NCBI GenBank assembly: GCA_963664325.2
Contig: CAXXDQ010000003.1
Coordinates: forward strand, 544,001-608,000
Reading direction: 5' to 3'
From: Desulfomonilia bacterium
GTDB lineage: Bacteria > Desulfobacterota > Desulfomonilia > UBA1062
DNA length: 64,000 nucleotides
The position numbers and the translations under genes are program-made. This document shows, piece after piece, positions 26,258 to 44,342 of the stretch. Position 1 is the first letter of the stretch; every line of letters starts with the position of its first letter. The notes below the pieces were generated by a model. The model ran no database searches, was not told the DNA's origin, and saw only the letters and a list, made by a program, of their open reading frames with translations.

Positions 26258-26290
26258 TATCTTAAGGCATGTTAAGGGAGAAATACACGT

Positions 26291-27034: not shown

Positions 27035-27106
27035 GGGTTTTATTGGAATGCAACAGGATTATCTATGGTTTTATAATATTAGAAAATTAAACTGTAACGG
27101 GGGCTT

Positions 27107-28855: not shown

Positions 28856-28912
28856 TTTTTGTATTTTTAAAGCATGAAATTGCTTTGCAGATTCGGGGAT
28901 TAAATATCAAAA

Positions 28913-30345
28913 TCAGCCCAGAAGTTTTTTCAGGGGCTCTTCTTCCCTCGATACCTCAACATTATCGTTGTCCGATTTTCTCCTGCTTATCAGAAAACGT
29001 TTAAGCCTGTAATGTGCTTCAGCACTCAGTGGAAAGTTCCTCATTGAGGCAATACTTGCAAGCAGAAAGATAACCGGGATAAAAATAAACATTACCCTGA
29101 GCGTAATAATAAAGGATTGGTCCTGCAGTTGCGGGATATTTCCAATTGGAGGTTTATAACCGGCGAACTCCAGGGCTAGTGAAAGAAGGAAAAGTATTGA
29201 GGCTGAACTCAGTTTCCGGATGAATATGAATATCCCGGCATAAAGGCCTTCCCGTCGTTCCTTTGAAAAAAGATCATCAATATCCGGCATGTCAGGGTAA
29301 ATTGCATATACCATTGCCATCACTCCGGCCATTCCTAAGCCTATAAAGGCAGTATAGAAATAAAAAAGCTATTACTGGGAAGCCAGGTTTCAGGATTATG
29401 CCTGCAACCATTATAAATGCCCAGAATGCAGCACCGGTAATGAAGGCGAATCCCTTGCCCTTTCTTTTGCTTATCATTACGTAAAATGGAATCATGAGTA
29501 TCTGAATAGCTACGAGTGTTCCGATCATGTAGTTTGTTATGCCGGGTTTATTTATATAATAGGACATATAATAAACAATCAAAGCCATTATCAAATCAAG
29601 TGCAAGGTAGATGAATGTGACACTTATAATGAACTTTCTGAAGGTCTTGATTTTAAACGGCTCAAAAAAATCTGTAAATCTGAACGATTTTTTTATGGGA
29701 GGCAATATTTGTACGCCTTTCTTTTGTTGAGAGAAAGACTGCAATGTATGGCAGCGCAAAGGCAATGCCGAATATTAAAGACATTACCCAGTATCCAGTG
29801 GCTTTGTCATAAAAATGTTTAATTATTTCCATCGGAATAACCGCACACAAGAGCACCGAACCCATACCGAAAACCATTCTGATAGACATGGCGGAAGTGC
29901 GCTCGTGGTAGTCCATTGTTATCTCGGTTGAAAAGGCATTGTATGAAGTTGTTACAATACCCATGACAGTTGTAAAGATTATATAGGTGCATAGTGAATA
30001 GGCAAAGCGTGATAATGAGTTCTCAAATCCCGGGGAATACCACAGGAGGAAAAAGCTTAGAGCAATCAGCGGAATGCTGATAAGGAAAAAAGGTCTGCGG
30101 CGTCCCATAGGAGTTTGCATCCGGTCGGTGTAATGGCCGAAGAAAGGGTCAAATACCGCCCCCCATATTTTGCTTGTGAGCAGGATTATTCCGGCCAGGA
30201 ATGGGCTGATCCTGACAACATCGGTAAGAAATATCAGGTAAAGGGTGCCGACAATGATCATTGACCCGCCCAGGATATCACCAGAACCGAAGCATATTTT
30301 TGTCATGAGGCTGAGTCTGTCTGCCGGGTTGGTGTCTTTATACAT
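28913..30345 (-). pseudogene. MFS/GPH (MelB-like) glycoside-cation symporter in three frames (real pseudogene or sequencing indels)
   Basis: DPFFGHYTDRMQTPMGRRRPF, ERTSAMSIR, RREGLYAG motifs. Continuity is restored by removing one base near 29690-29725 and one in the A6 run at 29362-29367. Confidence 0.8.
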
Positions 30346-31586
30346 TATGAGTTCCTGAAAGGGATTTTCGTAAAGTAATGGGTGATGCCTATGAATCCTG
30401 AAGGTTTGCCAAATTTATCAATATGGATCATCAGGAACAGTTCCCCTGTAAGTTTTCTTCCAACTCTGTCAAACTGTTCGACAGGAATCACCTCTTTCCA
30501 TTCAAAATCATTTTTCTTCAGGGCTGACATGCCGTTTGAAAAGGATTCAGCCAGTCTGTTGAGCGTCTTTTTTGAAAGGGTAAGTCCTGCAACCAGTTTC
30601 ATGGCCTCGTCCGGTGTATATCCGAGAATTGTTTTAATCGATGGGCTGACATAGGTAAAATTCAACTCCATGTCTGTTACCCAGACCAGTTCGGAGCAGT
30701 TATTCATGACAACGCTCATCGTATGCAGTTTTTCTTCGGCGATCTTGTAATTGTATATATCGAAAAGAAGGCAGATAAAGCCGGTGTGTACACCCTGTTT
30801 GCGTGATGGCGTCGTGGCAATCATTGTCCAGTAGTTGAAGCCGCTCTTGAGTTTAAGCCTGAAATCATCTGCAATGTTTTTTTCGTTTTCGAATTCCAGG
30901 GAACGCTTTAACTGACGCTCCATCCGGGGCCAGTCGTCGCTAAAGAAAAACTCACTGATATGATGGCCGATGATTTCGTCCTCAACATACCCGCCAAGCT
31001 TCAATATGCGTCCTCCGGCACTTGTCACCATCCAGTTTTCATTAATTGTGACAATTCCCTGCGTAATAAAATCCAGGAGATACTTTAAACTCTCGTCATT
31101 ATGTTTGATTTCAAGCAGAGTCTCGCTAAGGATAATCGAATAGGTTATGTCAATTGTTTCCTGCAATACCATTGACAGTTCTGAACTTTTCCATCCGCGT
31201 TTTGTCTTTTCGCTGACGCAACACATGAAGCCCCAAAGCTTGCCTTCATGCTGCAACGGGATGAACATGACAGACTTGGCGCCGAGTTTCTTCAATATGC
31301 CCGCCTGCTGTTCAGGCAGGCTTTCAACCGGGTCGAAAAACGGCATGAAAGACTTAAGGCAGAAATATATATTGGGAAGGTCACCAGATAAATTTATGTT
31401 TTTCCATTTTTCATCAGAATGATTACCGGGCGGGGTAGTTTGTGGCCATGTGTATTTAAGCATATTCCCGTCGTCGGCCAGCTGTATTACAGATATCCTG
31501 TCGATCCGTACAGTTGATGCTATCTTTCCGAGATGCGAAACAATCTTCGCATTGAGGTTAACGACAAAATCAAACAAATGCTCCAT
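30345..31586 (-). CDS. GAF + two PAS domain sensor protein without output domain
   Basis: GAKSVMFIPL...LWGFMCC...WKSSE (GAF); GYVEDEIIGHHISEFF and FTYVSPSIKTILGYTPDE (PAS); stop overlaps MFS start at 30345. Confidence 0.75.
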   Translation of the reverse strand: MEHLFDFVVNLNAKIVSHLGKIASTVRIDRISVIQLADDGNMLKYTWPQTTPPGNHSDEKWKNINLSGDLPNIYFCLKSFMPFFDPVESLPEQQAGILKKLGAKSVMFIPLQHEGKLWGFMCCVSEKTKRGWKSSELSMVLQETIDITYSIILSETLLEIKHNDESLKYLLDFITQGIVTINENWMVTSAGGRILKLGGYVEDEIIGHHISEFFFSDDWPRMERQLKRSLEFENEKNIADDFRLKLKSGFNYWTMIATTPSRKQGVHTGFICLLFDIYNYKIAEEKLHTMSVVMNNCSELVWVTDMELNFTYVSPSIKTILGYTPDEAMKLVAGLTLSKKTLNRLAESFSNGMSALKKNDFEWKEVIPVEQFDRVGRKLTGELFLMIHIDKFGKPSGFIGITHYFTKIPFRNS

Positions 31587-31636
31587 GGGTATGAGAAATT
31601 ATATTAACATCAATTTAAAGTAAAGGCCAATTTACT

Positions 31637-31699
31637 AATAGCGAATAAATAATATAAAATACGCTAAAAAAATTAAAATAGCGAATAAATATATTGACA
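31637..31699 (+). promoter_or_regulatory. 15-bp direct repeat AATAGCGAATAAATA x2 (31637, 31677) next to TTGACA (31694) in the divergent intergenic region
   Basis: Exact repeat with 40-bp period; second copy abuts a consensus -35 box. Confidence 0.55.
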
Positions 31700-31731
31700 G
31701 TCGCTTGGCAGGTAAGTCATATATTTATATT

Positions 31732-32028
31732 ATGAACCTGAAATCATGGATAGGCATTATGGGGCTTAAGCAAAAGGTTGTGGCTGAGAACCTCGGCATA
31801 TCAACAAGCTATCTTTCAGAGATACTGACAGGGAAGAAAAAACCCACAATCGAGCTTGCCCAGAGAATTGAGGAATATACCAACAATGAAGTGCGGCGTC
31901 TTGATGTGCTGTACCCTGTGAAAAAGCAGCAGACTGAAGACATTTTGGAGCAGCAATCTAACATGTTTATTTCAAGAGGAACGCCGCTTACGCCCGAATT
32001 GTGTAAAAAGGTTCTTTCGGGAAACTGA
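31732..32028 (+). CDS. XRE/Cro-like helix-turn-helix regulator
   Basis: QKVVAENLGISTSYLSEILTGKKKP HTH; LAQRIEEYTNNEVRRLDVLYP tail typical of Cro/YdaS-like proteins; ATG 31732 preferred to TTG 31705. Confidence 0.8.
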   Translation: MNLKSWIGIMGLKQKVVAENLGISTSYLSEILTGKKKPTIELAQRIEEYTNNEVRRLDVLYPVKKQQTEDILEQQSNMFISRGTPLTPELCKKVLSGN

Positions 32029-32094
32029 TTTTATTAATTAATTTTTACCGGTTTTCATATCCGGCTGATTGATAAATTGAAAAGGAGGTCTGTA

Positions 32095-33570
32095 GTGTTA
32101 AGATATAGTGTATTAATTTCAGTTTTCATTATTATGACAGCTTTATGCGGCTGCAACAGGATAACATCTGTTTCACCTGACACATCAAAGACAATAGTCA
32201 TGAGCCCGGGCGAGATGAAAACTTTCTCTTTCACTAGCATTGCAAGCGGTCCTCTTGTACGGCAAAGATGGCATACTCCAACAGATGTTGATACGTTGCG
32301 TTTTGGTTCCAGTGGAGCATATGTTTTTTGGCCGAATAAAAATAATATCGGGGAAAACTATATTTCATTCGATGTGCAGAGTTATCTTATTATAAGCATA
32401 GTTCCCCCCATGGATAAGGTCTTGTGGAGTGACAGCCGAACTTGGACAGTAATTGTAAAAGGGGTTGAAGTAAAGCCATTTGAAAACAATGTCCCGGCAG
32501 TCGGCAAATCCGTGGAATATACAGCCAAAGGATGGCCCGAAGGAAACTATGATTATACATGGGATCTTGATGGCAATGTTGTAGGCAGCGGTGACACTTA
32601 TACATTTACACCGAGATTTGAGCAAATTGGCAGGCATACACTAAATGTCAAAGCAATCGGAGAAGGAAATGAATTTGAACATAAAAGGGAAATATATGTC
32701 CCTTTATACGAATCTAATGGGCATTCTCTTTTCACTACTCTTGATGGTGGATATATTATCGGTGGGAGAAATGAGAACAATACTTGGTACACTGCTATTG
32801 TTAAACTTGATTCCTATGGCCAGGAAGAATGGAGTTTCAAGGGGGATTATAACCCAGGGTATGTAATTCCAACTGCTGATCAAGGATATATCGGTATTGA
32901 GAGAAATTATTATGACAATCCAGGATGTAATATAATAAAATATGATGGATCAGGTCATGTTCAATGGGTGAAAGAATATCCAGATTATCCAGCTCCATAT
33001 CTGATAAGGGAAGTATATAACAATGGTTATATAATAACGGGATATGGATATTCAGGGATTGAATATGAATCCTATATCTTGAAAATTGATGAATCGGGTG
33101 AGATTGAATGGTACAAATCAATTGATGGAATTGGAAAAGATATAGTACCCATGCAAGAAGACGGATATCTGGCAGTCGGTCCAAGAAGTCTGTTTTTTCT
33201 GGATTCAAATGGCAATGTCAAATCAAGTCGGGAGTTTTCAGAAGAAATACATTCTGCATGGCCTGATAAGGACTTTATAAAGATATTAGCTGGTAGTGAT
33301 TTGCTAATGAAATATTTTGATGACGGTACTGTTCAGAAAATAAAACTGCCGTGTATTATATCCGGAGGTGAACCCACCTCTGACGGCGGGCTTATCTGTA
33401 GGTCAAATTCCTTTATCACAAAATTAAATTCAATGAATAGGATAGAGTGGGAAAGAGAAATCCGTTCACCAGATTATGTTCATCAATGTGAAAACGGGAG
33501 TTATTTGATAAGCTGTGGGGATTGGGCTACCCCATATGTTATCCTGAAACTCGACGCAAACGGGAATTAG
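32095..33570 (+). CDS. Lipoprotein: Ig-like module + second Ig/PKD-like domain + beta-propeller repeats
   Basis: SD aggagg + GTG 32095; lipobox LCGC; YTWDLDGNVV; repeated T.DGGYI..G and KLD..G...W motifs. Confidence 0.75.
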   Translation: MLRYSVLISVFIIMTALCGCNRITSVSPDTSKTIVMSPGEMKTFSFTSIASGPLVRQRWHTPTDVDTLRFGSSGAYVFWPNKNNIGENYISFDVQSYLIISIVPPMDKVLWSDSRTWTVIVKGVEVKPFENNVPAVGKSVEYTAKGWPEGNYDYTWDLDGNVVGSGDTYTFTPRFEQIGRHTLNVKAIGEGNEFEHKREIYVPLYESNGHSLFTTLDGGYIIGGRNENNTWYTAIVKLDSYGQEEWSFKGDYNPGYVIPTADQGYIGIERNYYDNPGCNIIKYDGSGHVQWVKEYPDYPAPYLIREVYNNGYIITGYGYSGIEYESYILKIDESGEIEWYKSIDGIGKDIVPMQEDGYLAVGPRSLFFLDSNGNVKSSREFSEEIHSAWPDKDFIKILAGSDLLMKYFDDGTVQKIKLPCIISGGEPTSDGGLICRSNSFITKLNSMNRIEWEREIRSPDYVHQCENGSYLISCGDWATPYVILKLDANGN

Positions 33571-33577
33571 CTGATTG

Positions 33578-33607
33578 CAGGCCAGGAGCATTCGCCTGGC
33601 CTGTTTT
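33578..33607 (+). terminator. Rho-independent terminator
   Basis: CAGGCCAGG-8 nt loop-CCTGGCCTG followed by TTTT. Confidence 0.7.
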
Positions 33608-33632
33608 GTAAATGAATGTAATTGGGGTCTAT

Positions 33633-35477
33633 ATGAAAATAAAAATAGTTTTATCGATGTGTGCTGTTTGTCTTATTTTTGCAGGCTGTGAACCTTTTGC
33701 AGTCCAAGACCCGGAATTGAACAAGGCCTGCACGACCTTGGAGCGGTTTATTGTCCAGCCGCACTCCGACATTGTGGAACTGCTCGCAGCCCAGGGGCTG
33801 ACGCCGGTCGGCAGTGTCACCATCGCTGATCCTGCAAGCGGTAAAATCTACACCGGTTATCTGGCCACTTTCGACGGCGCCTATTCGGAAGGCGCCAACG
33901 CTGCTAGCCAGCATATCGGGCCCCTGCCCAAATACTGTCTGGTGCTGTCAGGCAGTTCCTACTGCATGGGCTATCAGATGGGCTATCTCCTGCCGGCCCA
34001 GACCCAGCTCATGACAGGGAACTTCCTGGACAAGGCGGCCGAGGCGCTCACCAACGTCAAACGTACCGACTTCCCTAAATTCTATGACTTCTTCAAGAAC
34101 GAAGTTCGCAAGCTCTGCGAGGACGCACGGCCCGTGATCCCGGATTACCTCGAAGAGGAAATGGCCGGCATGGCTGCCGGGGCCACTGCGCATGGCTATG
34201 CAGTCGACGCCCGCGACATCATGCTCATGAACGAGGGCTTCGACGCCATGTATGCCATCCTTTCAACTGGCGTCCTTCCGAGCTTTCAGGAATTTGTGAA
34301 TCTCCTTGCCGGCAAACGTGCCCAGCTTGCCGCCGCCAAACAGACTGATGTCCTTAAGCGCATTGACGCCAGCTTGAGCGTTTCAGGCGGCCGGGTGCTC
34401 TTTCCCCGCGCCGATCCCTACATCATGGGCTGCAATGAGTTCATCGTCTCTGGCAATGCCACAGTTGGCGGTGCAGTCTATCACGGACGGGACTTCATGT
34501 TCGTCACCGGCGACATATACCAGGACACCTCCTGTGTGGCCGTCTATCTGCCCGAGCAGGGGCACCCATTCATCACTGTCACCACACCGGGATTCGTTGG
34601 CCACCCCACGGCGCTCAATGACCAGGGGCTTTCCATGGGCATGGACGTGGTTCGCGGGGCATGTACACGTCCGACCCCCGGCATGAGCTCCCTGTTTGTG
34701 TTGCGTGATATCGTCCAGAACAGCGCCGGCCTGGACGAGGCCGTGGCGCGCATGAAGGCCATGGACCGAGGCGTATCCTGGTTGTACGTCATCGCCGACG
34801 ATGAGCGTAGCGCCACATACACCAACGGTGTGGTAGTTGAGCAGGGCCGCAGTGATCCATCCTATACCGGGCCGGACCTCATGCCCTTCTGGAATCAGAT
34901 CCTGCTCTGGCCACTCATCATAAGGCTCAAGGGCCAACCTATGCCGGAGCGGGGCATTCTGGTCAGAGACCAGTCCTGGGTCTATCCGGATGTGTTCAAG
35001 AACGTCAGCATCGGGACGTTTAACGGCGATGACATGGATTACAAACTCTATTTTCCGGACCAGCTCGAGACCTGGCCGGATGTAGTTGTTGCAGGCAACC
35101 ACTATGTTATCCCGCGCATGGTCTTCACCACCTACAATCCGTTAATCGGACTCATAGGCGGAAAGATTGAGAAGACCGTATTCCGGTACAACAAGATGGT
35201 CGAACTCATTGGCAATGACTATGGCAAGGTTGATTACGCAAAGGCCCGTGAGATCATCGATTTTCTCAATCCCAATCGCGGAATCGATAATCTCAAGCGT
35301 TACAAGATTGGCGGGCCGGTAGAGGGCCATCACGCGATCATAGATAACAGATCGCGCACGGTGGAAGCCCTCTTCGGGTATTACGGCGACTGGGAGGGCG
35401 GAGTGGACGACGTCTGGGTCAAGCTGGACCTGAAGCCATTCGCGGCCTGGCTGTACTCCACAGAGAAAAGCAACTGA
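33633..35477 (+). CDS. Lipoprotein Ntn-hydrolase, peptidase C45 / acyl-CoA:6-APA acyltransferase family
   Basis: Lipobox FAGC; GYQMG, EEMAGMAAG, MG|CNEF autoprocessing Cys, HGRDF, ALNDQGL; visibly more GC-rich than its neighbours. Confidence 0.8.
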   Translation: MKIKIVLSMCAVCLIFAGCEPFAVQDPELNKACTTLERFIVQPHSDIVELLAAQGLTPVGSVTIADPASGKIYTGYLATFDGAYSEGANAASQHIGPLPKYCLVLSGSSYCMGYQMGYLLPAQTQLMTGNFLDKAAEALTNVKRTDFPKFYDFFKNEVRKLCEDARPVIPDYLEEEMAGMAAGATAHGYAVDARDIMLMNEGFDAMYAILSTGVLPSFQEFVNLLAGKRAQLAAAKQTDVLKRIDASLSVSGGRVLFPRADPYIMGCNEFIVSGNATVGGAVYHGRDFMFVTGDIYQDTSCVAVYLPEQGHPFITVTTPGFVGHPTALNDQGLSMGMDVVRGACTRPTPGMSSLFVLRDIVQNSAGLDEAVARMKAMDRGVSWLYVIADDERSATYTNGVVVEQGRSDPSYTGPDLMPFWNQILLWPLIIRLKGQPMPERGILVRDQSWVYPDVFKNVSIGTFNGDDMDYKLYFPDQLETWPDVVVAGNHYVIPRMVFTTYNPLIGLIGGKIEKTVFRYNKMVELIGNDYGKVDYAKAREIIDFLNPNRGIDNLKRYKIGGPVEGHHAIIDNRSRTVEALFGYYGDWEGGVDDVWVKLDLKPFAAWLYSTEKSN

Positions 35478-35562
35478 GCCATATATGAATAATGAAAAGG
35501 TGAGGCAGGCAACTCCAGGCAGAAGTAATTAAAACATTAAATATTTAAGGAGGGTTGATATT

Positions 35563-37281
35563 ATGAAATCATTAACATTCGCAAAAAGGTTTATGGTTTT
35601 GGTGGCGGTGTCATGCCTGAGCATCTCTGTTGCCGGATGTGTTATTTCTTCGTCACCGGAGAACAAAACATTGACATTTGAACCAGGGGATAAAATGGAG
35701 TTCAGCGCAAAAGTGTCCAGTTCATGCTCAATGGTTACGTGGTATCTATCAGACAAGGATGAGCCGAACTATGGAAATATAACTTGGTATGATGAATTTC
35801 TACTCTTTGGAACTTCAAATATTTCGGTTATAGCTGAAGAGAGGTTTGCTGGTGAAAATATTGTTCACTTAGAAGTACGGGATTTTATTATTTTACCAAT
35901 ACCAACGGGAGGCCTCCCTTTTTACATTGAAATACCAGCAACTAACATATATTGGAAAGTTACAGTAAACGGTCTTGCAATAACCCCAAATCTTTACAAA
36001 TCAAATATTACTGTAGAACCCGGGAAGACTCAACATTTCGAGGCAGAGGCATATCCGAAGGGCGACTATCAATACTCATGGGTTTTTGATGGAGAGGTTA
36101 TCAGCAGCAATGATTCATTTGATTTCACCCCATCTTTCACTCAGACCGGCATTCATAAGCTGGAAATCAGTGCTGTATCGACTTCAAGAACTTTCAGCCG
36201 TCAGTTTGAAATTGCTGTTCCCCACAGGATAGTAGATCTCAATGGCTATAATAGTCAGTGTGTTTTATTAAAAGATGGAAGTTATGCAACCTGCAATAGT
36301 TCAGAATCAGGATGGGTATTATCAAAATTAAATTCAAACTTTATTATTGAATGGACGCAGGTGCTTGGAAATTATGATGACGCACCGTTCGTTGAACTCC
36401 TTAATGATGGGACCTTGATGGCAATATTTTCTGATCATATGGTTAAACTATCTGGTCAGGGGCAAATATTATGGGAAAAGGAATATCCAGCGTCTCTTGG
36501 GTCTATAATTTTTAAGGAAACTTCAGAAGGGAAATTTCTTCTGGCAAGCGACTCAAAAATTTACCTGCTGGACAACGACGGCCAGATCATCTGGGAGAAA
36601 GATACAAACGGACGAGTCAGCTCTATAGATATTATAGATGATGGAGGTTTTATAATAGGAGGACAATCAAATCGAACAGATATCCCAGGAACAGTAAATC
36701 ATGGAGGATATGACTGCTATATAGCGAAGATTGACAGTTCGGGAAATATTGAATGGGATAAGCTGTACGGCGGTTCAGGAGATGATGGTGTTTCTTCAGT
36801 AAAGAAAACCTCTGACGGTGGATATATCCTTGCCGGTTACTCTAATTCGACCGATCTAGGAACAATAGGTTATGGCGAACATGATATTTATATAATTAAA
36901 CTCGACCAGTACGGCGATATTGTCTGGCAAAGGCTCTATGGCGGGACAAATTGGGATGATGCGACTGATATAATACAAATCTCCGGCACAGGATATATGG
37001 TTTCAGGCAATTCATATTCAAAGGATATACCTGGGACAATATGGCTTGGGGCACATATGCAGGAAAAAACTGGAGAACGGACACATAGCAACGGGTTGAT
37101 AATGAAAATTGATGATAACGGTAATGTCATGCGCCAGACGCTTGTTGGGGGTATCGACAATGATTTACTGGAAAGCTTTATAATTGATCCCGATAACAAG
37201 ATTCTATTACCAGGAATTTTCTCAGGCGTCTCTTCAGGTTCAGAAAAAAAGGATGTTATTCTTGATCTGAGTAATTATTAA
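35563..37281 (+). CDS. Lipoprotein: Ig-like module + Ig/PKD-like domain + beta-propeller repeats
   Basis: SD aaggagg; lipobox VAGC-VISSSP; YGGSGDD...TSDGGYILAG...IIKLD.G..W repeats. Confidence 0.78.
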   Translation: MKSLTFAKRFMVLVAVSCLSISVAGCVISSSPENKTLTFEPGDKMEFSAKVSSSCSMVTWYLSDKDEPNYGNITWYDEFLLFGTSNISVIAEERFAGENIVHLEVRDFIILPIPTGGLPFYIEIPATNIYWKVTVNGLAITPNLYKSNITVEPGKTQHFEAEAYPKGDYQYSWVFDGEVISSNDSFDFTPSFTQTGIHKLEISAVSTSRTFSRQFEIAVPHRIVDLNGYNSQCVLLKDGSYATCNSSESGWVLSKLNSNFIIEWTQVLGNYDDAPFVELLNDGTLMAIFSDHMVKLSGQGQILWEKEYPASLGSIIFKETSEGKFLLASDSKIYLLDNDGQIIWEKDTNGRVSSIDIIDDGGFIIGGQSNRTDIPGTVNHGGYDCYIAKIDSSGNIEWDKLYGGSGDDGVSSVKKTSDGGYILAGYSNSTDLGTIGYGEHDIYIIKLDQYGDIVWQRLYGGTNWDDATDIIQISGTGYMVSGNSYSKDIPGTIWLGAHMQEKTGERTHSNGLIMKIDDNGNVMRQTLVGGIDNDLLESFIIDPDNKILLPGIFSGVSSGSEKKDVILDLSNY

Positions 37282-37330
37282 CCGTTAAAAAATTGAAGTG
37301 GGTTCTCACGAAAGTTATTGGAATGAAAGG

Positions 37331-37381
37331 GGGTCAGTCTCAACATTAAACAGCTTGTTGTCAATTGTTGAGACTCGACCC
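37331..37381. repeat. REP-like palindrome
   Basis: GGGTC-AGTCTCAACA ... TGTTGAGACT-C-GACCC arms around a ~20-nt spacer. Confidence 0.6.
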
Positions 37382-37389
37382 TGGAGGAA

Positions 37390-37560
37390 ATTGGCGGCAC
37401 GGTGGAGTGACATTGCGCGATCATAGATAACAGATCGCGCACGGTGGAAGCCCTCTTCGGGTATTACGGCGACTGGAATAATGGTGTTGAGGATGTCTGG
37501 GTGAAGATGGATATAAAACCCTTCGCAGATTGGTTTTACTCTACACAGCTCGGCGCTTAA
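37390..37560 (+). pseudogene. 3' remnant of a C45 peptidase paralogue
   Basis: Translates IGGTVE*HCAIIDNRSRTVEALFGYYGDWNNGVEDVWVKMDIKPFADWFYSTQLGA*; 37416-37476 is identical to 35333-35393. Confidence 0.85.
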
Positions 37561-37610
37561 GAAATTTTATGAATCATGAAATGGCAAAATTTATAAGGGG
37601 GATTTTAATT

Positions 37611-37733
37611 ATGAAAACATCAACTTTGGCAAAAAGATTCATTGTTTTGGTTTATGCTTCATTTTTGAGCCTTTCCATAACGGGCTGTCTTATTTCTTCA
37701 TCACCTGAGAATAGTACAGGGAGGGTATCATGA
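37611..37733 (+). pseudogene. 5' remnant (signal peptide + lipobox) of a paralogue of the 35563 lipoprotein
   Basis: MKTSTLAKRFIVLVYASFLSLSITGCLISSSPENS versus MKSLTFAKRFMVLVAVSCLSISVAGCVISSSPENK. Confidence 0.75.
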
Positions 37734-39322
37734 AAAAACAGTATTTATTGCTAGTTATCTTTGCCGTGTTGGCCGCATCAAGCGGCTGCGTAATCACTGC
37801 TACACCGGACCCTTCAAAACAAGTCACAATTAATACAGGCGAGGAAGTTGTTCTTAACATTGTATGTTCGAACTTTCTAGGTCTGGTCGGCTACAGATGG
37901 AATGTCTTTGAGGACGGCGAGGCGTTAAACCCGGTTTTGAATACAGATGGCCCGAATAAAAACAGGCAATATACATTTGCAACTGAAATCCCCGGCCGCT
38001 ACAAGATCATGGGTACTGCAATCCATTATGTCATTTCAAAGGATGTTCCCCCGATCGTTTTGTTCAAAGAGGTCTCGCGCGAGTCAAGGGAATGGGATGT
38101 TATTGTCAAAGGCGTCAGGATATCACCATTAAAAAGAAATCTTGTATTATATGGCAGTCCTAATGAGTTCAAGGCAACCGCCTATCCAGAAGGCAATTAC
38201 AGTTATGAATGGAAGCTTGACGGCAATATCGTTTCCTCTTCAGATACATGTAATATCTCTCCTGGCCTTTCTGATTCAGGCTGGCGCAGGCTCGAAGTAA
38301 GGGCCGTTTCAGAAAGCGCACAGTTTTCTGCCTTCAGAGAGATCCATCCTGCCAAGCTTCTTGCCGGTTCCTCCAAAATAGCTGGAATTGATACGACTGG
38401 TCATCTGGCGGTTAATGGCGGCAGGCTGATTAAATACGATTTGCAGGGGAGCATCGTGTGGGAATACACAAACGCAGAAATTGATTTGAGCAGATACGGT
38501 TCAATAATCAAGTCCACACCGGACGGAGGGTGTATTTTTTTAGGGAGTGACATTGATTTCAATTACAGGCTGGGAAAAATCGACGGCACCGGACAACTCA
38601 AATGGGAGACAGGGATGCTTGAAGTGTCAGATCCTTCCCTCAACGATATTATACCCGCATCAGACGGCGGAATCATTGCTGTTGGAAAGGCAGGAAACAC
38701 TATTAACAGCTATTATAAAGAAGGTATGGTTATCAAAATCGGTCCTGCAGGCAGCATTGAATGGACCAGCATGCTGGGAGATATTAATTCCCATGATGTT
38801 ATCCTTGCAGGCCAGGCTCCGAATGGTATTTGCTATCTTGTTTCAGATGAAGTCAACAAATCGTTGGTAATCGTTATCGATGGAAATGGTTTGGTTGTCA
38901 GAAGTACTGTTGTCAGCGAACCGCTTAACATTATCCGCATGGTCCCGACCTCAGACGGCGGATGCATAATTGCCGGTTATGACTGTGTGACCAAACTCGA
39001 TGCACTCCTTGAAGTACAGTGGAGCAGGAAGTTTTCAGAAGATTTACAAAACTGCTCCATTATCGACATCGTACAGGGATCAGCCGGCGGGTATGTCTTT
39101 CTCGGGAGCAAAAAACTGCTGTACCAGCCATACAGGTTTTCATACGGGGTGTTCGTCACAACAATTGATGAAGACGGTGACATTCTTGGTGAAAAAACTC
39201 CTTTCATTGTAGAGGAAACTTCCGGGGAACATGCTGATTATCTGAGACTGACGCCTGTAGATAACGGTTATTCCTTTGTTTATCACGATTACATGATAAG
39301 GCTGGATGGTTCAGGGGATTGA
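37730..39322 (+). CDS. Lipoprotein: Ig-like module + Ig/PKD-like domain + beta-propeller repeats
   Basis: SSGC-VITATP; ATAYPEGNYSYEWKLDG shared with 32095 and 35563; TPDGGCI, SDGGII repeats. Confidence 0.75.
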   Translation: MKKQYLLLVIFAVLAASSGCVITATPDPSKQVTINTGEEVVLNIVCSNFLGLVGYRWNVFEDGEALNPVLNTDGPNKNRQYTFATEIPGRYKIMGTAIHYVISKDVPPIVLFKEVSRESREWDVIVKGVRISPLKRNLVLYGSPNEFKATAYPEGNYSYEWKLDGNIVSSSDTCNISPGLSDSGWRRLEVRAVSESAQFSAFREIHPAKLLAGSSKIAGIDTTGHLAVNGGRLIKYDLQGSIVWEYTNAEIDLSRYGSIIKSTPDGGCIFLGSDIDFNYRLGKIDGTGQLKWETGMLEVSDPSLNDIIPASDGGIIAVGKAGNTINSYYKEGMVIKIGPAGSIEWTSMLGDINSHDVILAGQAPNGICYLVSDEVNKSLVIVIDGNGLVVRSTVVSEPLNIIRMVPTSDGGCIIAGYDCVTKLDALLEVQWSRKFSEDLQNCSIIDIVQGSAGGYVFLGSKKLLYQPYRFSYGVFVTTIDEDGDILGEKTPFIVEETSGEHADYLRLTPVDNGYSFVYHDYMIRLDGSGD

Positions 39323-39387
39323 CTTCTAGCCAGGCAAACCAAGCCGGTTTGTTTTAAATAAAAGTTAAAAAAATTGGAGGTTGTATC

Positions 39388-40722
39388 ATGAAAAAAGGAA
39401 GATGGCTGGTATTTGGACTACTGGGAATGGTTCTGGCGGTTGGATTGTCCGGGTGCATTATCTCGACCTCTCCGGACTCCAGCAAAGTTATAGTAATGAA
39501 CCCGGGCGAAACAAAGGTTTTCAAGGTAAGCGGTGTGAATCTCAATACATCCATAACAAAATGTGTGTGGTCTATCCCCAGGAAGGATGGAAATCCTGCT
39601 GAAGTTTTTGAGAACACAGATCATGTAGAATTCACGGTTAATCCTGAAGGCGAAAAGTCTAACAGGGTGATAATAACTTGTGAATATTGGAGGTGGTTAT
39701 ATATGCCCCCTAGTCCTTTGATTGGTTCGGGTGGGTGGGGATGGGTTCCAACAGGCATAAGGACCTGGAACATCTGCGTACCTAGAGATACCGCGCCAGT
39801 CTGGCAGGGGAATTATTATATAACGGACAGCACAGATGTGCAGATGCTGAACGGCTACACTGAAATCACAGGTGTTTTAGATATCAGTAATAGTAATTTA
39901 AAGAGTCTGGAAGGGTTAGAAACCCTGACTAATATTGGTAGAGACTTGCAAATTTCTGATAATACCGCCTTAACAAGCCTGTCCGGTCTTGAGAACTTAA
40001 CATCGGTCGGTGGATACTTGGAGATTGGGAGTTATGGGGAGGGCAATCACGCCTTAAAAAGCCTGTCCGGTCTTGAGAACCTGACATCGGTTGGTAGTAC
40101 GCTGGACATTTGTAATAATGCCGCCTTAACGAGCCTGTCCGGTCTTGAGAACCTGACATCGGTTGGTAGTACGCTGGACATTTGTAATAATTACGCCTTA
40201 AAAAGCCTGTCCGGTCTTGAGAACATCACATCGGTTGGTGGAGACTTGTGTATTCAGTATAATTACGCCTTAAAAAGCCTGTCCGGTCTTGAGAACCTGA
40301 CATCGGTTGGTGGAAGCTTGTATATTGATGATAATGTCATCTTAACAAGTCTATCCGGTCTTGAGGGCTTAACATCGGTTGGTCGGGAGTTCTGTATTAG
40401 GACTAATGCCTTAACAAGCCTGTCCGGACTTGAGAACTTAACATCGGTTGGTTGCTTGGTTATCGGGGACAATGCCATCTTAAGAAGCCTGTCCGGGCTT
40501 GAGAACATAACATCGGTCGCTAGCTTGTCTATTTGGGGGAATCCCGCCTTAACGGCATTGGGAATGTCAGGCCTGCAAAGAGTTGATCGGGATTTCGTAA
40601 TAGAGGATAACCCCCTGCTTTGTACATCATTGGCCGAAGAACTTATGAACCAGGTCCTTGCAGGCGGAGGCATCGGCGGCACCATCTATATCAGCAACAA
40701 CAAGGAATGCACCACGCCATGA
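39388..40722 (+). CDS. Lipoprotein: Ig-like module + leucine-rich (receptor L-domain-like) repeats
   Basis: LSGC-IISTSP; about 9 copies of LxSLSGLENLTSVGGxLxIxxN; cap NPLLC...NNKEC. Confidence 0.85.
   Translation: MKKGRWLVFGLLGMVLAVGLSGCIISTSPDSSKVIVMNPGETKVFKVSGVNLNTSITKCVWSIPRKDGNPAEVFENTDHVEFTVNPEGEKSNRVIITCEYWRWLYMPPSPLIGSGGWGWVPTGIRTWNICVPRDTAPVWQGNYYITDSTDVQMLNGYTEITGVLDISNSNLKSLEGLETLTNIGRDLQISDNTALTSLSGLENLTSVGGYLEIGSYGEGNHALKSLSGLENLTSVGSTLDICNNAALTSLSGLENLTSVGSTLDICNNYALKSLSGLENITSVGGDLCIQYNYALKSLSGLENLTSVGGSLYIDDNVILTSLSGLEGLTSVGREFCIRTNALTSLSGLENLTSVGCLVIGDNAILRSLSGLENITSVASLSIWGNPALTALGMSGLQRVDRDFVIEDNPLLCTSLAEELMNQVLAGGGIGGTIYISNNKECTTP
39960..40560 (+). repeat. Intragenic ~75-bp tandem repeats (LRR units)
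   Basis: Constant core GCCTTAA..AGCCTGTCCGGTCTTGAGAAC.TGACATCGGT.GGT plus a variable ~30-bp segment. Confidence 0.9.
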
Positions 40723-40740
40723 GGCGATAAAGAGACTGGG

Positions 40741-40778
40741 CACCGGCTCCCGGGCTTGACCCGGGGGCCGGGTGTTTT
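40741..40778 (+). terminator. GC hairpin/terminator, copy 1
   Basis: CCGGCTCCCGGG-CTTGA-CCCGGGGGCCGG followed by GTGTTTT. Confidence 0.7.
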
Positions 40779-40805
40779 GAATTAAAAATCAGTTTGGAGG
40801 AACCA

Positions 40806-41930
40806 ATGAAAAAAGGAAGATGGCTGGTATTTGGATTACTGGGAATGGTTCTGGCGGTTGGATTGTCCGGGTGCGTTGTCTCGACCTCTCCAGGCACGGA
40901 AGATGTCATACTAATGAACCCGGGCGAAACAAAGGTTTTCAAGGTTAGCGGCGTGAATCTCAATACACCCCTAATAACAATGTGCAGGTGGTCTATCGAC
41001 AGGAAGGATGGAAATCCTGCTAAAGTTTTTGTGTACACAGATCATATAGAATTTACTGCTAATCCTGAAGGAGAGAAGTCTAACAGGGTGATAATAACTT
41101 GTGAATATTATAGGTGGTTATATGTGCCTTTTACTATTCCTGGCTATTGGGTTTTTGGATCAACAGACAGCAGTACCTGGAACATCTGCATACCTAGAGA
41201 TACCGCGCCAGTCTGGCAGGGGGATTATTATATAGCTGGCAGGACTGATGTGCAGATGCTGAACGGCTACACTGAAATCACAGGTGATTTAGATATCATT
41301 AATAGTAATTTAAAGAGTCTGGAAGGGTTAGAAAACCTTACTAATATTGGTGGGGACTTGTATATTTTAGGTAATGACGCCTTAACAAATCTATCCGGTC
41401 TTGAGAACCTTGCATCGGTGGGTGGAGACTTGGCGATTGGGGAATTTTATTATATGGGAAATGCCGCCTTAACAAGCCTGTCCGGTCTTGAAAGCTTAAC
41501 ATCGGTTGGTGGGGAGTTGATGATTAATATTAATAATGAGTTAACAAGTCTGTCCGGGCTTGAGAACTTAACATCAGTCGGTGGAGGCTTGAATATTGGG
41601 AGAAATTCCGCCTTGACAAGCCTGTCCAGTCTTGAGAACCTGACATCGGTTGGGGGATACCTGGCGATTTGGGAGAATACCGCCTTAACGAGCCTGTCCG
41701 GTCTTGAGAACCTGACATCGGTAGGTGGAGACTTGTGGATTCACTCTAATTATGCCTTAACATCTTTAGAAATGACAGGCCTTCAAAGGGTTGATGGGTA
41801 TTTCGAAATATATTATAACCCGCTGCTTTGTACATCTTTAGCCGAGGATCTTATGAACCAGGTCCTTGCAGGCGGAGGCATCGGCGGGACAAGATCTATC
41901 CACGACAACAAGGAATGCACCACGCCATGA
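40806..41930 (+). CDS. Lipoprotein: Ig-like module + LRR repeats, tandem paralogue of 39388
   Basis: Identical signal peptide MKKGRWLVFGLLGMVLAVGLSGC; about 6 LRR units; near-identical 3' end; SD ggagg before ATG 40806. Confidence 0.85.
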   Translation: MKKGRWLVFGLLGMVLAVGLSGCVVSTSPGTEDVILMNPGETKVFKVSGVNLNTPLITMCRWSIDRKDGNPAKVFVYTDHIEFTANPEGEKSNRVIITCEYYRWLYVPFTIPGYWVFGSTDSSTWNICIPRDTAPVWQGDYYIAGRTDVQMLNGYTEITGDLDIINSNLKSLEGLENLTNIGGDLYILGNDALTNLSGLENLASVGGDLAIGEFYYMGNAALTSLSGLESLTSVGGELMININNELTSLSGLENLTSVGGGLNIGRNSALTSLSSLENLTSVGGYLAIWENTALTSLSGLENLTSVGGDLWIHSNYALTSLEMTGLQRVDGYFEIYYNPLLCTSLAEDLMNQVLAGGGIGGTRSIHDNKECTTP

Positions 41931-41948
41931 GGCGATAAAAAGACTGGG

Positions 41949-41986
41949 CACCGGCTCCCGGGCTTGACCCGGGGGCCGGGTGGTTT
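41949..41986 (+). terminator. GC hairpin/terminator, copy 2
   Basis: Same hairpin sequence as 40741. Confidence 0.65.
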
Positions 41987-41999
41987 GAATTAATATTCA

Positions 42000-42080
42000 G
42001 TAATCTCGACGTCTCCTGGCACCGGCAATGTGATATTAATGATCCTGGGTGAAACACAGTTTTTCAAGATGAATCTGTAA
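42000..42080 (+). pseudogene. Fragment of a third lipoprotein N-terminus
   Basis: VISTSPGTGNVILMILGETQFFK versus VVSTSPGTEDVILMNPGETKVFK in the 40806 gene. Confidence 0.7.
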
Positions 42081-42619
42081 ATGAAATACATGATGTTGAT
42101 GATGCCAGACTTTGTCCGATAGGTGTCAACCAGTTTAAAAAGGATAATACGGGCCTTTCGAGCCTTACAGTGTATGGTCTTGGTTGGATGAGTTCTGAAG
42201 GGGGCGGACGATATTGGAATTACCCGTGGTTTTCAGAAGCTTATTAAAATCTTATGGTTCACTGGGAACCGCTTTTAAGGGCAGGATTCAAAAGGAAACA
42301 GAAGATTTCCTCAAAAGATAAAATGTCCTGTGGAGGTCTTGAGGTATCCGGAAATGAAGGCTTCCTCCCCGGATACCGTGCCGCAATGCTTAAACTTTCT
42401 GACAATCTTTCAGTTATCTATTTTATTAATGAGTCCTATTCTGATGAGATCAGAGACGAATCGAGAATCCAGCCAAAAAGATTTAGACATTATGCTTCAG
42501 CATGCGATGGGGCGCCTGAGTTGTTGAAAACTGACGGCGCTTTTCCCCATGATAGAGTGAAAGTTATCAAGCTGGAATACGTTCTATTAAAGATTGCTGC
42601 CAGTTTTAATAGGCCTTAG
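42071..42619 (+). pseudogene. 3' remnant of a paralogue of the 27107 serine hydrolase
   Basis: ESVNEIHDVDDARLCPIGVNQFKKDNTGLSSLTVYGLGWMSSE... aligns to 28301-28855; in-frame TAA at 42245; no SxxK half. Confidence 0.85.
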
Positions 42620-42643
42620 AATATTTGTTATTGATTTCCACTA

Positions 42644-42671
42644 TTGAATATGTCCTATTATATAGTATAAT
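42644..42671 (+). promoter_or_regulatory. Putative sigma70 promoter for the two short lipoproteins
   Basis: TTGAAT-16 bp-TATAAT. Confidence 0.45.
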
Positions 42672-42750
42672 TTAAGATCAAGTTGTTGAATGAACTTTTA
42701 ATGCTTTAATATGTATATGAACATTGTTTTAAGAAAGAGAGGTAGAAAAC

Positions 42751-43101
42751 GTGAAAAGCACAATGAGAATGGTAATGATTTTATTAATCTCCCTGATGTT
42801 TTCAAGTTGTATAATTTCTTCATCTCCCGAAGGGAACTCATTGAGCCTTAGCGAATCACAATATCAACTGTTTTTGGTTGCAGCTGCAAAACCAGCATTT
42901 CCATCCAATTCTTCCTTGCACTATAACTGGTTTATTGACGGAGTCTGGAAAACAGAGAACCCGTCAATTTTCTATTCTCCGTCTGCTTCCGATATCGGCA
43001 ATACTGTAACCATCCTGTGCCGTGTAACTGTGACGAATGACAATAATGGTGTAATAACCTCGAGTGATGACCGTAAATGGCAAGTAACAGTGACTCCTTA
43101 A
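42751..43101 (+). CDS. Small lipoprotein consisting only of the shared Ig-like module
   Basis: FSSC-IISSSP; YNWFIDG; ends SDDRKWQVTVTP; SD gagagg. Confidence 0.75.
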   Translation: MKSTMRMVMILLISLMFSSCIISSSPEGNSLSLSESQYQLFLVAAAKPAFPSNSSLHYNWFIDGVWKTENPSIFYSPSASDIGNTVTILCRVTVTNDNNGVITSSDDRKWQVTVTP

Positions 43102-43135
43102 AATTTTAAAGCAGAAAGAGAAAGGAGAAATACTC

Positions 43136-43477
43136 ATGAAAGCATTAAAATATTTAGGATTACTTATCGTGATGTTATGCCTGTCAGGATGTATAATAGT
43201 ATCAGCTACGCCGGAACAGTCTGAGATATCGATGGACATCGGGGATAGTGTTAATTTTACTATTGTTGCATCAAGTATGGGTTATCAGGGCAGCATAGTA
43301 CAATCCTGGTATGTCAATGATATAAAAACAGGATGGTCCACGGTGAGTTTTCCATTCTTTGCACTCAGTTCAGGGACCTTTGAGATAGAAGGGAGAGTTG
43401 ACATAGTCAGGCATTTGAAAACAGGTGATAAAATAGTTGCTACCGAATCACGATTCTGGACAGTCACCGTTGAATGA
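43136..43477 (+). CDS. Small lipoprotein consisting only of the shared Ig-like module
   Basis: LSGC-IIVSATP; SWYVND; ends TESRFWTVTVE; SD aaggag. Confidence 0.75.
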   Translation: MKALKYLGLLIVMLCLSGCIIVSATPEQSEISMDIGDSVNFTIVASSMGYQGSIVQSWYVNDIKTGWSTVSFPFFALSSGTFEIEGRVDIVRHLKTGDKIVATESRFWTVTVE

Positions 43478-43655
43478 TGCGGTTCCTGTTTCAAGGGTAT
43501 CCTGACATGCATTTATAATGTCGGCATTGTTCAGGGATGCTGAACCGTTACCTTTGTTACGTGAAATAAAATATTTTCAGGTCTGACCTCGTTTATACTG
43601 GACTGGAATATTACAGGAACAATATATCATATGGAAACCATACACAGTATCAGCT

Positions 43656-44342
43656 TTATTTCATCTTATACCGTTTTTCATAAAGCCCGCTGTCGAATGG
43701 AGCCCTCCTGCCCGGGCAGTCCTGACGCGGACAGAGCTGGCAGTTGTGGAATATTTCTCCTGAAGCGTAGGTCAGGCCGCTAACCGATTTGAGAGGTTTC
43801 ATAAGGAAGCTCTCGTTTAGCATTATTCCTATATCGGCGGTTTCTTTTTTCATCAGGGTGAACAGTTTTGCCTGCTCCGTTATCGGCCAGTCCTCAAGGG
43901 AACCGGGGTTCATGGTTGAGACGGTTTCGGCATCCAGAATCCGTTTAATCCTTTCATTTACTTCCTGCATGGCGGTGCCCAGGGCGAGAAACATTATGGT
44001 GTCTGCCCAGAACTGTTCTAGGTAACTGTCAAACTGTGAAGACCAGTCATCAAGCTCGGTCCCACAGGTTGCGGCAAAAACAGTCAGATTCGGAGAGTCC
44101 TTCAGGTTGACTGAAAGGACACGGCTGTTAAGCGTTATGCCTTCTACGGTAATGAAGTCGTCTCCGCAATTCATAATATCCAGAACCCTCAAGGCGGCCT
44201 TTGGCTTTGCAACTTCCAATGCCGATCTGGAAATTTCAGAAAGCCTTAGGGCCAATGATGAACCCGGACGCACCTTTAACCCTTCACGGAGAAGCCCTTC
44301 ATCGATGTCAAAGGGTATATTGTCAATGATTATGGATTCCAT
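43656..44342 (-). CDS. Vitamin B12-dependent methionine synthase activation-domain-like protein
   Basis: ATCGTELD, MNPGSLEDWPITEQ, MKPLKSVSG, CQLCPRQDCPGRR; corrinoid operon context. Confidence 0.75.
   Translation of the reverse strand: MESIIIDNIPFDIDEGLLREGLKVRPGSSLALRLSEISRSALEVAKPKAALRVLDIMNCGDDFITVEGITLNSRVLSVNLKDSPNLTVFAATCGTELDDWSSQFDSYLEQFWADTIMFLALGTAMQEVNERIKRILDAETVSTMNPGSLEDWPITEQAKLFTLMKKETADIGIMLNESFLMKPLKSVSGLTYASGEIFHNCQLCPRQDCPGRRAPFDSGLYEKRYKMK

Follow-up and report, generated by a model that had tools for sequence, protein, structure and literature searches.

A germline, paralogue-specific variable hairpin in a predicted Ig-like lipoprotein module of a Desulfomonilia bacterium resembles an antibody CDR3 in position only

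A stretch of 64,000 nucleotides from a Desulfomonilia bacterium (GenBank assembly GCA_963664325.2, contig CAXXDQ010000003.1, positions 544,001 to 608,000 of the forward strand; this whole stretch is called 'the window' here, and coordinates are counted from its first letter) harbors an array of lipoprotein genes, two of which, the neighboring paralogues A and B, encode an immunoglobulin (Ig)-like module followed by a domain of leucine-rich repeats (LRRs). An initial annotation of the window pointed to a short stretch of the module in which the two genes differ strongly, and proposed that it forms a hairpin between the last two strands, acting as a diversified specificity loop positionally analogous to the third complementarity-determining region (CDR3) of antibodies. 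As described below, that hairpin is a germline, paralogue-specific variable element that matches CDR3 in position only, a conclusion that is carried by the anatomy of the module, the ranking of variability among its parts, the mode by which the hairpin changes, its conservation among orthologues, and the absence of the parts of a diversity-generating retroelement (DGR). The hairpin is probably also an element through which each paralogue makes contacts of its own, placed at the membrane-side pole of the module and acting alongside the face of the LRR domain, although its binding is something that we infer.

Comparison of the two genes firmly established that their DNA is nearly identical on both sides of the loop, as the initial annotation had stated: AACAGGGTGATAATAACTTGTGAATATT is found as an exact string at 39661 and 41082, ACCTGGAACATCTGC is found likewise at 39763 and 41175, and the 90-nucleotide flanks of the diverged stretch display 90% and 92% identity. 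The two loop peptides quoted in that annotation map to 39679-39768 in A and 41100-41180 in B, and the direct repeats shared by the genes end at 39707/41128 and restart at 39749/41161, leaving 41 and 32 nucleotides unmatched. Across the diverged stretch 17 codons can be aligned, with a changed residue in 13 of the 17 and 22 differing nucleotides (57% identity), and these are accompanied by an indel of three codons for which the extra codons are present only in A. No other 17-codon window along the two genes (372 aligned codons) is as diverged; when all 372 codons were permuted 10,000 times, the observed maximum was reached in 0.13% of cases for amino-acid differences and 3.2% for nucleotide differences, and none of 10,000 permutations confined to the 167 N-terminal codons reached it. 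Windows within the LRR region are close behind in nucleotide differences (20 and 19, versus 22).

The further statement that the two loops are unrelated in sequence was found to hold for their peptides, the similarity of which does not rise above chance (341 of 2000 shuffles reach the observed score), but not for their DNA. A global alignment of the loop DNA scored 0.5, versus -11.5 +/- 3.7 for shuffled sequences, and because only 9 of 2000 shuffles reached that score the loops can be regarded, at the level of DNA, as homologous and in frame. Analysis of the pair by the Nei-Gojobori method gave nonsynonymous divergence (dN) of 0.59-0.66 in the hairpin, versus 0.13-0.16 elsewhere. An excess of synonymous changes in the hairpin is unconvincing (5 of 12 sites), and synonymous divergence (dS) is uneven along the gene, amounting to 0.06 in the signal peptide, 0.09 in the linker and 0.40 in the LRR region.

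The location of the diverged stretch within the protein was examined in two AlphaFold2 models, one of full-length mature A (39-row alignment; pLDDT 96.4, pTM 0.90) and one of the module alone (40-row alignment; pLDDT 94.5). Both display the same strands, corresponding to A (residues 3-5), A' (11-13), B (19-25), C (34-40), C' (49-52), E (56-60), F (70-83) and G (93-107). Of modeled strand F only the last residue falls within the diverged stretch, which also takes in the tip (residues 84-92) and the first ten residues of strand G, and the modeled F and G arms are 14 and 15 residues long, with a tip of nine, versus 7 residues in the core strands B and C; approximately seven residues of each arm, together with the tip, would therefore project past the sandwich. 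In both models the diverged stretch is thus predicted to be the F-G beta-hairpin of an Ig-like beta-sandwich, the F-G connection being the topological position of CDR3, in agreement with what had been proposed. When the alignment of A and B is read against the modeled strands, the differences within the module cluster at the N-terminus, BC, C'-E and F-G.

The predicted fold can be named only as generic Ig-like, because Foldseek, when run with the isolated module on the PDB, found nothing at an E-value of 0.001 or better, and comparison with 48,161 chains using VIA-align gave nothing at a Z-score of 8 or above. The best VIA-align matches (Z 7.6) were to the first domain (D1) of MAdCAM-1 and the N-terminal domain of BT1487, and the weak top rows returned by Foldseek (E 0.013 or weaker) corresponded to monobodies and to heavy-chain variable domains of Fabs. 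The full-length model retrieved LRR proteins such as internalins at E-values of about 1e-4 with low TM-scores, and matches in the ESM Atlas, all scoring 0.89 or lower, fell in PKD, Big_2 and I-set clusters and serve as leads only. In Ig and fibronectin type III (FN3) sandwiches the F-G turn is found at the same pole as the N-terminus. In the present proteins the lipidated cysteine precedes strand A by only two residues, and the tip of the hairpin would accordingly share its pole with the N-terminus and the lipid anchor, which would be an awkward site for distal binding of the antigen type.

The variability of the hairpin was subsequently compared with that of other parts of the module in an alignment of 90 distinct modules, of which 77 came from protein searches and the organism's own genome (identical ones removed) and 13 from the loci of relatives. 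Column entropy was 3.46 bits in the C' strand, 3.33 bits in the C-C' loop (standard deviation of length 3.6), 3.30 bits in the F-G tip (3.2), 2.40 bits in BC and 2.32 bits in EF. Among pairs of modules having 80-90% framework identity (n=20) the tip was 40% identical, versus 56% for C-C'/C', 80% for BC and 92% for EF, and among those of 70-80% framework identity (n=52) the corresponding values were 12%, 36%, 68% and 82%. Judged from these alignments, the tip of the hairpin appears to be the fastest-diverging contiguous piece of the module, with C-C' a close second. The proposal of a diversified loop was therefore upheld in that the tip is more diverged than every other region when pairwise identity is considered, but not in the sense of a uniquely variable loop, since C-C' equals the tip in entropy and in spread of length. 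The concentration of variability at one pole is similarly divided: the differences between A and B cluster at the BC/F-G pole, whereas across the family the C-C' region, which by topology would lie at the pole opposite the F-G tip, is equally variable.

The hairpin ranges in length from 13 to 32 residues (for the segment corresponding to residues 77-100), and in A it is rich in Trp, Tyr and Gly. The hairpins of LRR-type members contain 9.1% Trp, 8.6% Tyr and 10.2% Gly (versus 4.1% Trp and 4.1% Tyr in the whole module) and are poor in Lys, Arg and Glu, and C-C' in the same members is rich in Asp and Glu. An aromatic-x-aromatic motif is found in the G arm of 44 of the 90 modules. A pair of cysteines, usually spaced as C-x(2-8)-C, brackets the tip in 26 of the 90, A and B being without it, and suggests tips that are stapled by disulfides in an oxidizing compartment. 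The hydrophobic, proline-rich loops that had been quoted for the other long members of the array (IISIVPPMDK, IILPIPTGGLPFY and VISKDVPPIVLF), and the polar turns of its two short members, are present as described.

The mode by which the hairpin changes is indicated by pairs of modules of about 90% framework identity, among which the identity of the hairpin is bimodal. In several of these pairs (P0153/P0154, P0160/P0161 and B/P0007) the hairpin is kept at 95% identity, and in the last of them, formed by B and the fragment P0007, the framework is only 86% identical. In others the hairpin differs, as in P0157/P0162 (framework 91% identical, hairpin 4%) and in the comparison of A with an A-like fragment, P0005, which carries a different and shorter hairpin (42% identical, versus 91% for the framework). 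DNA from genomes of the same genus shows that the P0162 type of hairpin arose from the P0157 type through two deletions, of 7 and about 23 nucleotides, between which the sequence is translated in a different frame; the change is a compensated frameshift. The hairpin rewritten in this way, its frame preserved by the two deletions jointly, is that of the same-genus genome G002. Within the same group, the orthologues of a gene located elsewhere in the genome under study, the hairpin tip contains a series of Gly codons that numbers either 6 or 3 (G000, C3:849732; compare L003:1750-1903, L023:647-800 and L032:1681-1804).

Selection was assessed, again using the Nei-Gojobori method, for 11 pairs chosen from the 18 modules with DNA. 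In four orthologue pairs that keep the hairpin, dN/dS was 0.24-0.43 in the hairpin and 0.11-0.27 in the framework; in four pairs with a remodeled hairpin, the hairpin gave values of 0.95-1.59 with dS of 0.62-1.02; one further pair gave 0.67 with dS of 1.00, and the remaining two were saturated in dS. Positive selection is claimed neither for the hairpin (dN/dS about 1) nor for the exposed positions of the LRR domain (about 2, not significant; Fisher p 0.26). The pattern is one of occasional remodeling followed by purifying selection, and it shows no sustained positive selection on aligned codons.

Variation within populations, which had been suggested as a further place to look, was examined using Logan contigs of three metagenome runs, here called X1, X2 and X3, the last of which is probably the source sample; six runs contain the region or a part of it. 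The X3 contigs that extend over the two loops contain no variant letters in either. In X1, an independent sediment metagenome, a contig spanning the B loop (41067-41217) differs at 1 of 151 nucleotides, and a piece covering 40919-41069 differs at 6 of 151; in X2, a freshwater sediment metagenome, a contig spanning the B loop (41073-41253) differs at 0 of 181, and a piece covering 40691-40874 displays 22 differences in 184 nucleotides plus a gap. Within the limits of contigs, the B loop shows no less conservation than its flanks, and no population variation focused on the loops was found. Joints observed in X3 and X2 were considered as possible rearrangements and rejected, because the contigs behind them belong to paralogues or relatives and align with portions of the repeats.

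A search for machinery that might diversify the hairpin was equally negative. A blastn-short search with the loops and their flanks against the whole 4.3-Mb genome found no third copy of either loop, the matches being the loops themselves and each other's flanks; a search for reverse transcriptase (PF00078) in the same genome (95.58% complete) gave 0 matches, with a control search positive in 3 of 14 genomes; and no inverted repeats were found in 26000-44000. A DGR was rejected on the basis of the missing reverse transcriptase and template copy, and cassette or inversion systems on the basis of the missing inverted repeats in that interval and the missing third loop copy. The antibody-style diversifying system implied by the analogy with CDR3 was therefore not found, and dedicated diversification within one lineage, as seen in antigen receptors, is not observed in these contig-level data (no extra loop copies, no variants in X3, and conserved hairpins among orthologues).

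The DNA of the A loop harbors the only canonical G-quadruplex motif of the window, GGGTGGGTGGGGATGGG at 39729-39745 (+ strand), which is one of 4 in the genome having loops of 1-2 nucleotides and one of 53 having loops of 1-7 nucleotides. A similar motif is present in the related hairpins of two other loci (L024 and L021). Runs of G are generally denser in hairpin DNA because the codons that come after Trp codons begin with G, and Gly codons show no preference for GGG (3 of 46 in hairpins versus 14 of 90 elsewhere). A G-quadruplex as the driver of loop change was rejected, since Trp-Gly-Trp codons explain the motif and GGG is not favored; the motif is taken here as a by-product.

The hairpin is not the only part of the two proteins that has diverged. 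Six LRR units of A and B were aligned, although these may not all be orthologous, and the proteins were found to differ at unit positions 12, 14, 16, 17 and 19 in 5, 6, 5, 6 and 5 of the six units, versus 0-3 of 6 at scaffold positions. At those five positions 27 of 30 codons differ (dN 1.39, dS 0.68), compared to dN of 0.09 and dS of 0.39 for the scaffold, and A possesses about three units more than B, the repeat being 24 residues in length. Such a pattern is what an LRR domain with a diversified binding face ordinarily displays. Between A and B the hairpin is less diversified than the exposed LRR positions (dN 0.59-0.66 versus 1.39), and it accordingly ranks as the second of two diversified surfaces, with the LRR face the first.

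The hairpin is thus read as a germline contact element. Duplication of a gene is followed by remodeling of its hairpin through in-frame indels, slippage in runs of Gly codons and compensated frameshifts; each new version is then kept by purifying selection, with no hypermutation or cassette system acting on the hairpin; and the hairpin, together with the more strongly diversified LRR face, would most likely separate tandem paralogues by what they contact, whether a ligand or an envelope partner near the membrane. Several points weigh against that reading. The C-C' region is as variable as the F-G tip in entropy and length, which weakens the idea of one special loop. The hairpin dN/dS is significantly above 1 in no comparison, and values near 1 are explained equally by relaxed constraint or by misalignment, because dS is high as well. 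The fragment P0005 may be either an allele of A or another paralogue. The contigs of X1 and X2 have a depth of 2-3, and contigs hide rare variants; the A loop is covered in X3 and lies outside the independent runs. Finally, the solvent exposure of the hairpin, its orientation towards the membrane, and any role in binding are inferred.

Three other explanations must be considered. The hairpin might serve as a membrane-side pedestal, in which aromatic residues placed on or in the membrane interface beside the lipid anchor position the module without recognizing a ligand, and for which a hydrophobic, aromatic, Gly/Pro-rich composition is sufficient, so that the sequence drifts freely. Such a role is unlikely, but it accords with the pole shared by the F-G turn and the N-terminus (the general topology of such sandwiches, applied to the AlphaFold2 strand order), with the two residues that separate the lipidated cysteine from strand A, with the enrichment of the hairpin in Trp and Tyr and its depletion in Lys, Arg and Glu next to an acidic C-C', with the hydrophobic, proline-rich tips of long members versus the short polar turns of the stand-alone short members, and with a slightly favorable mean interfacial transfer energy (-0.09 kcal/mol per residue for the hairpin versus +0.18 for the whole module). 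That hydrophobic signal is weak, however, and binding loops, too, are typically enriched in Trp, Tyr and Gly, which counts against the pedestal; the bracketing of tips by cysteines, and the Asp, Glu, Asn or Gln that many contain, are more like a displayed loop; and orthologues conserve each version of the hairpin beyond what composition alone predicts. The same conservation bears on the possibility that the hairpin is a functionless loop at a site where the fold tolerates indels, and which decays neutrally after duplication. The dN/dS of about 1 and the raised dS of remodeled pairs are what such decay would produce, as are the tolerated compensated frameshift, the wide range of lengths and the like behavior of C-C'. 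The low hairpin dN/dS of the four orthologue pairs that keep it, a B loop with few or no differences in two other metagenomes in which its flanks do differ, and the recurrence of aromatic-x-aromatic motifs and cysteine pairs stand against it, and make this explanation quite unlikely.

Programmed diversification, whether by a DGR, by cassette gene conversion between the tandem paralogues, or by instability triggered at a G-quadruplex, is very improbable. The presence of the window's only such motif inside the A loop would fit the last of these mechanisms, and patches of gene conversion could account for the uneven dS of the A/B pair. Neither a reverse transcriptase, nor a template or silent loop copy, nor inverted repeats emerged from the searches made, however; no variant letters or joints are centered on the loops in X3; the G runs follow from Trp-Gly-Trp codons; and the hairpin is conserved by orthologues. 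The reading of the hairpin as a germline, paralogue-specific element is the one preferred here.

Comparison with known systems further delimits that element. Its likeness to the third heavy-chain CDR (CDR-H3), and especially to long CDR-H3s that form beta-hairpins, lies in a long, protruding F-G hairpin, rich in Tyr, Trp and Gly, that belongs to an Ig-type sandwich, is placed at the pole of the N-terminus, and is bracketed at its tip by a cysteine pair in a part of the family. In contrast to CDR-H3, the hairpin is without somatic or programmed diversification and varies in the germline between paralogues and lineages, and in contrast to antibody V domains the N-terminal pole of the module is tethered by lipid to the membrane and its sequence shows no relation to theirs. 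DGR variable proteins are similar in that hypervariability is confined to a short patch of a surface-protein or lipoprotein gene that is conserved elsewhere. Most DGR targets have a C-type lectin fold with the patch at the C-terminus, whereas here the fold is predicted to be Ig-like, the patch lies in the middle of the protein, and no reverse transcriptase or template repeat was found.

Internalins and other LRR surface proteins (InlA, 2omv; InlF, 4fmz; Leptospira LIC10831, 4u06) combine, as do A and B, LRRs with an Ig-like domain in an envelope protein, and were the structures matched at E-values of about 1e-4; an LRR domain with variable residues on its exposed face is common to both. The order of the domains is reversed, however, with the Ig-like module of A and B coming first (residues 1-108), then a conserved linker and then the LRRs, rather than an Ig-like inter-repeat domain C-terminal to LRRs that are capped by N-terminal helices; the repeats are of the Receptor-L type (PF01030), the anchor is a lipobox, and TM-scores normalized by the query are 0.17-0.36. 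BT1487, a lipoprotein of Bacteroides thetaiotaomicron (PDB 4r5o), has an N-terminal Ig-like domain followed by a beta-propeller, as do the propeller-type members of the family, and is tied as the best match to the module (Z 7.6, rmsd 2.5 over 79 residues), but at 11% sequence identity and with a Z-score below 8, a level at which, by the tool's own rating, a match may reflect no more than a common arrangement; the entry brought up nothing on a variable hairpin. Two functional analogies can also be drawn: with monobodies and FN3 scaffolds, in which the binding loops BC, DE and FG lie at the N-terminal pole (compare the clusters of differences between A and B), and with the variable lymphocyte receptors (VLRs) of lampreys, in which exposed LRR positions are varied as they are in A and B. 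Monobodies and VLRs differ from the present proteins in that they are engineered or somatically assembled, whereas at most 6 LRR-type genes are found here per genome.

The array from which A and B are drawn consists of seven genes on the + strand, with very long open reading frames (ORFs) and a beta-lactamase-family gene upstream; the features bearing on the family are collected in Table 1. In translations and alignments, all seven open with a signal peptide leading to a lipobox cysteine, and then continue into a common stretch of approximately 100-110 residues. The lipobox was read from the sequence by its consensus pattern; its cysteine is invariant among the seven aligned members, and the motif is LSGC in both A and B, which by these features would both be bacterial lipoproteins. 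The architecture of B is that of A, with fewer LRR units. Pfam recognizes the LRR part, as Recep_L_domain (PF01030; E 1.3e-20 for A and 1.7e-18 for B) and LRR_EndoS (PF23952; E 1.4e-11 for A), but within residues 1-150 of A and B no Pfam family is found, none is matched by the short members at all, and NCBIfam gives nothing above its cut-offs on the shared module. No Pfam Ig family reaches threshold on the module, which by sequence was not placed in the Ig V-set or in other Ig families. The three long members with a second Ig-like stretch and a propeller-like region have only sub-threshold Pfam matches there.

Table 1. Features of genes A and B and of the other family members in the window (coordinates in the 64,000-nucleotide stretch; residues counted in the mature protein)
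Feature	Coordinates	Strand	Description or basis
Gene A	39388..40722	+	444-aa lipoprotein: signal peptide/lipobox, Ig-like module, linker, LRR (Receptor-L-like) domain, C-terminal cap
A signal peptide	39388..39456	+	Ends in lipobox LSGC, Cys being the last codon; read from sequence
A Ig-like module (predicted), residues 1-108	39457..39780	+	AlphaFold2 pLDDT 94.5, 8 strands; VIA-align Z up to 7.6
A F-G hairpin (predicted), protruding part, residues 77-100	39685..39756	+	DSSP strands
A hairpin tip (predicted), residues 84-92	39706-39732	+	DSSP
A diverged stretch	39703..39762	+	MPPSPLIGSGGWGWVPTGIR; A/B codon and DNA alignment
A LRR units	39898..40545	+	Nine units of 23-24 residues; repeat and A/B comparison
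Terminator-like hairpin 3' of gene A	40743..40771	+	Near-identical one 3' of gene B, about 41951-41981
Gene B, paralogue of A	40806..41930	+	374 aa from ATG; TTG at 40794 would give 378 aa
B Ig-like module (predicted)	40875..41192	+	Alignment
B diverged stretch	41124..41174	+	VPFTIPGYWVFGSTDSS; DNA alignment with A
B LRR region	41310-41753	+	A/B comparison
Family member, 497 aa	32077..33570	+	Module, second Ig-like domain and propeller-like region; ORF, Pfam, profile
Propeller-type family member, 572 aa	35563..37281	+	ORF, Pfam, profile
Propeller-type family member, 530 aa	37730..39322	+	ORF, Pfam, profile
Stand-alone short module, 116 aa	42751..43101	+	Short polar F-G turn; ORF, alignment, profile
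Stand-alone short module, 113 aa	43136..43477	+	Short polar F-G turn; ORF, alignment, profile

The distribution of the family was determined with a profile of 12 mature modules, which when searched against 1.84 billion representative proteins returned 350 proteins at E-values up to 0.001 and 69 at E-values up to 1e-10; a word-based search with A returned only 20 close relatives, and a single-protein scan of genome contigs returned one locus only. From the 150 matches listed, 59 homologues were taken in which the whole profile was matched in one or two stretches, whereas giant proteins with many repeats, the match of which did not extend past about profile position 98, were excluded; the start of the module lies 8-50 residues from the N-terminus in every one of the 59. 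The organism's own genome encodes the full module in 13 ORFs, of which six are of the LRR type and three of these six form a second tandem array. Among 41 genomes searched (this one and 40 relatives), matches at E-values up to 1e-8 were found in 8: all three other genomes of the same genus contained them (9, 4 and 4 matches, mostly in tandem), as did 7 of 24 genomes at the level of the family, and none of 16 genomes from a second family of the same class did. One homologue, P0164, which NCBI labels as coming from a metagenome-assembled genome of a Desulfomonilia bacterium, is identical to a module from a same-genus genome. The lipoprotein family thus appears to be restricted in lineage, with members that carry LRR, propeller-like or no further domains. 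Among the papers listed by a full-text literature search, judged by titles and the openings of abstracts, none deals with it. Two module matches within the genus contain one in-frame stop each, TGA at G003:C11:28876-29187 (L040) and TAA at G002:C5:190495-190809 (L041), and are possible pseudogenes of the family.

Additional observations concern the surroundings of the array. An ORF located 3' of gene B (42254-42619, + strand) is a copy, 74% identical over 116 aligned residues, of the C-terminal end of the beta-lactamase-family gene at 27107-28855, and the corresponding DNA repeat (42070-42369 versus 28300-28599) displays 74% identity over 300 nucleotides at a distance of 13.8 kb, as a decayed copy of that gene's 3' end. 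The regulator, transporter and lipoprotein genes that lie between the beta-lactamase-family gene and this copy may have arrived as one segment. Within the array, 37390-37548 (+ strand) is a direct repeat of 35307-35465 with 81% identity, and a 67-residue ORF at 37530-37733 (+ strand) has a signal peptide and lipobox that resemble the start of the gene at 35563-37281 before breaking off, and seems to be what is left of one more family member, immediately upstream of 37730. Upstream of the array, at 2-24778 (+ strand), are three very long ORFs of 3208 residues (open at its 5' end), 3079 residues and 1433 residues, the last of which has a translation suggestive of a non-ribosomal peptide synthetase module that ends in a reductase; they are followed by shorter ORFs resembling genes for tailoring enzymes or hydrolases.

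If the hairpin and the LRR face do set specificity, then the proteins described here would represent a compact natural scaffold, the recognition of which is diversified by gene duplication and the remodeling of a loop, without retroelements, and an unclassified and rare Ig-like lipoprotein module would join the catalogues of domains. As the evidence stands, the loop varies from one gene copy to another but is stable in any one lineage, and it should not be classed with hypermutation systems. A broader and more speculative reading, unlikely as it stands, is that the tandem arrays supply a sediment genus resembling Desulfomonilia with a small germline repertoire of recognition lipoproteins, each having two surfaces, in which a remodeled and often disulfide-bracketed aromatic hairpin, together with a varied LRR face, would give each paralogue a target of its own, the candidates for which are partner cells, polymers, phage and envelope partners. 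If true, such a repertoire would be the bacterial counterpart of an Ig-type loop and a VLR-type face combined within one protein.

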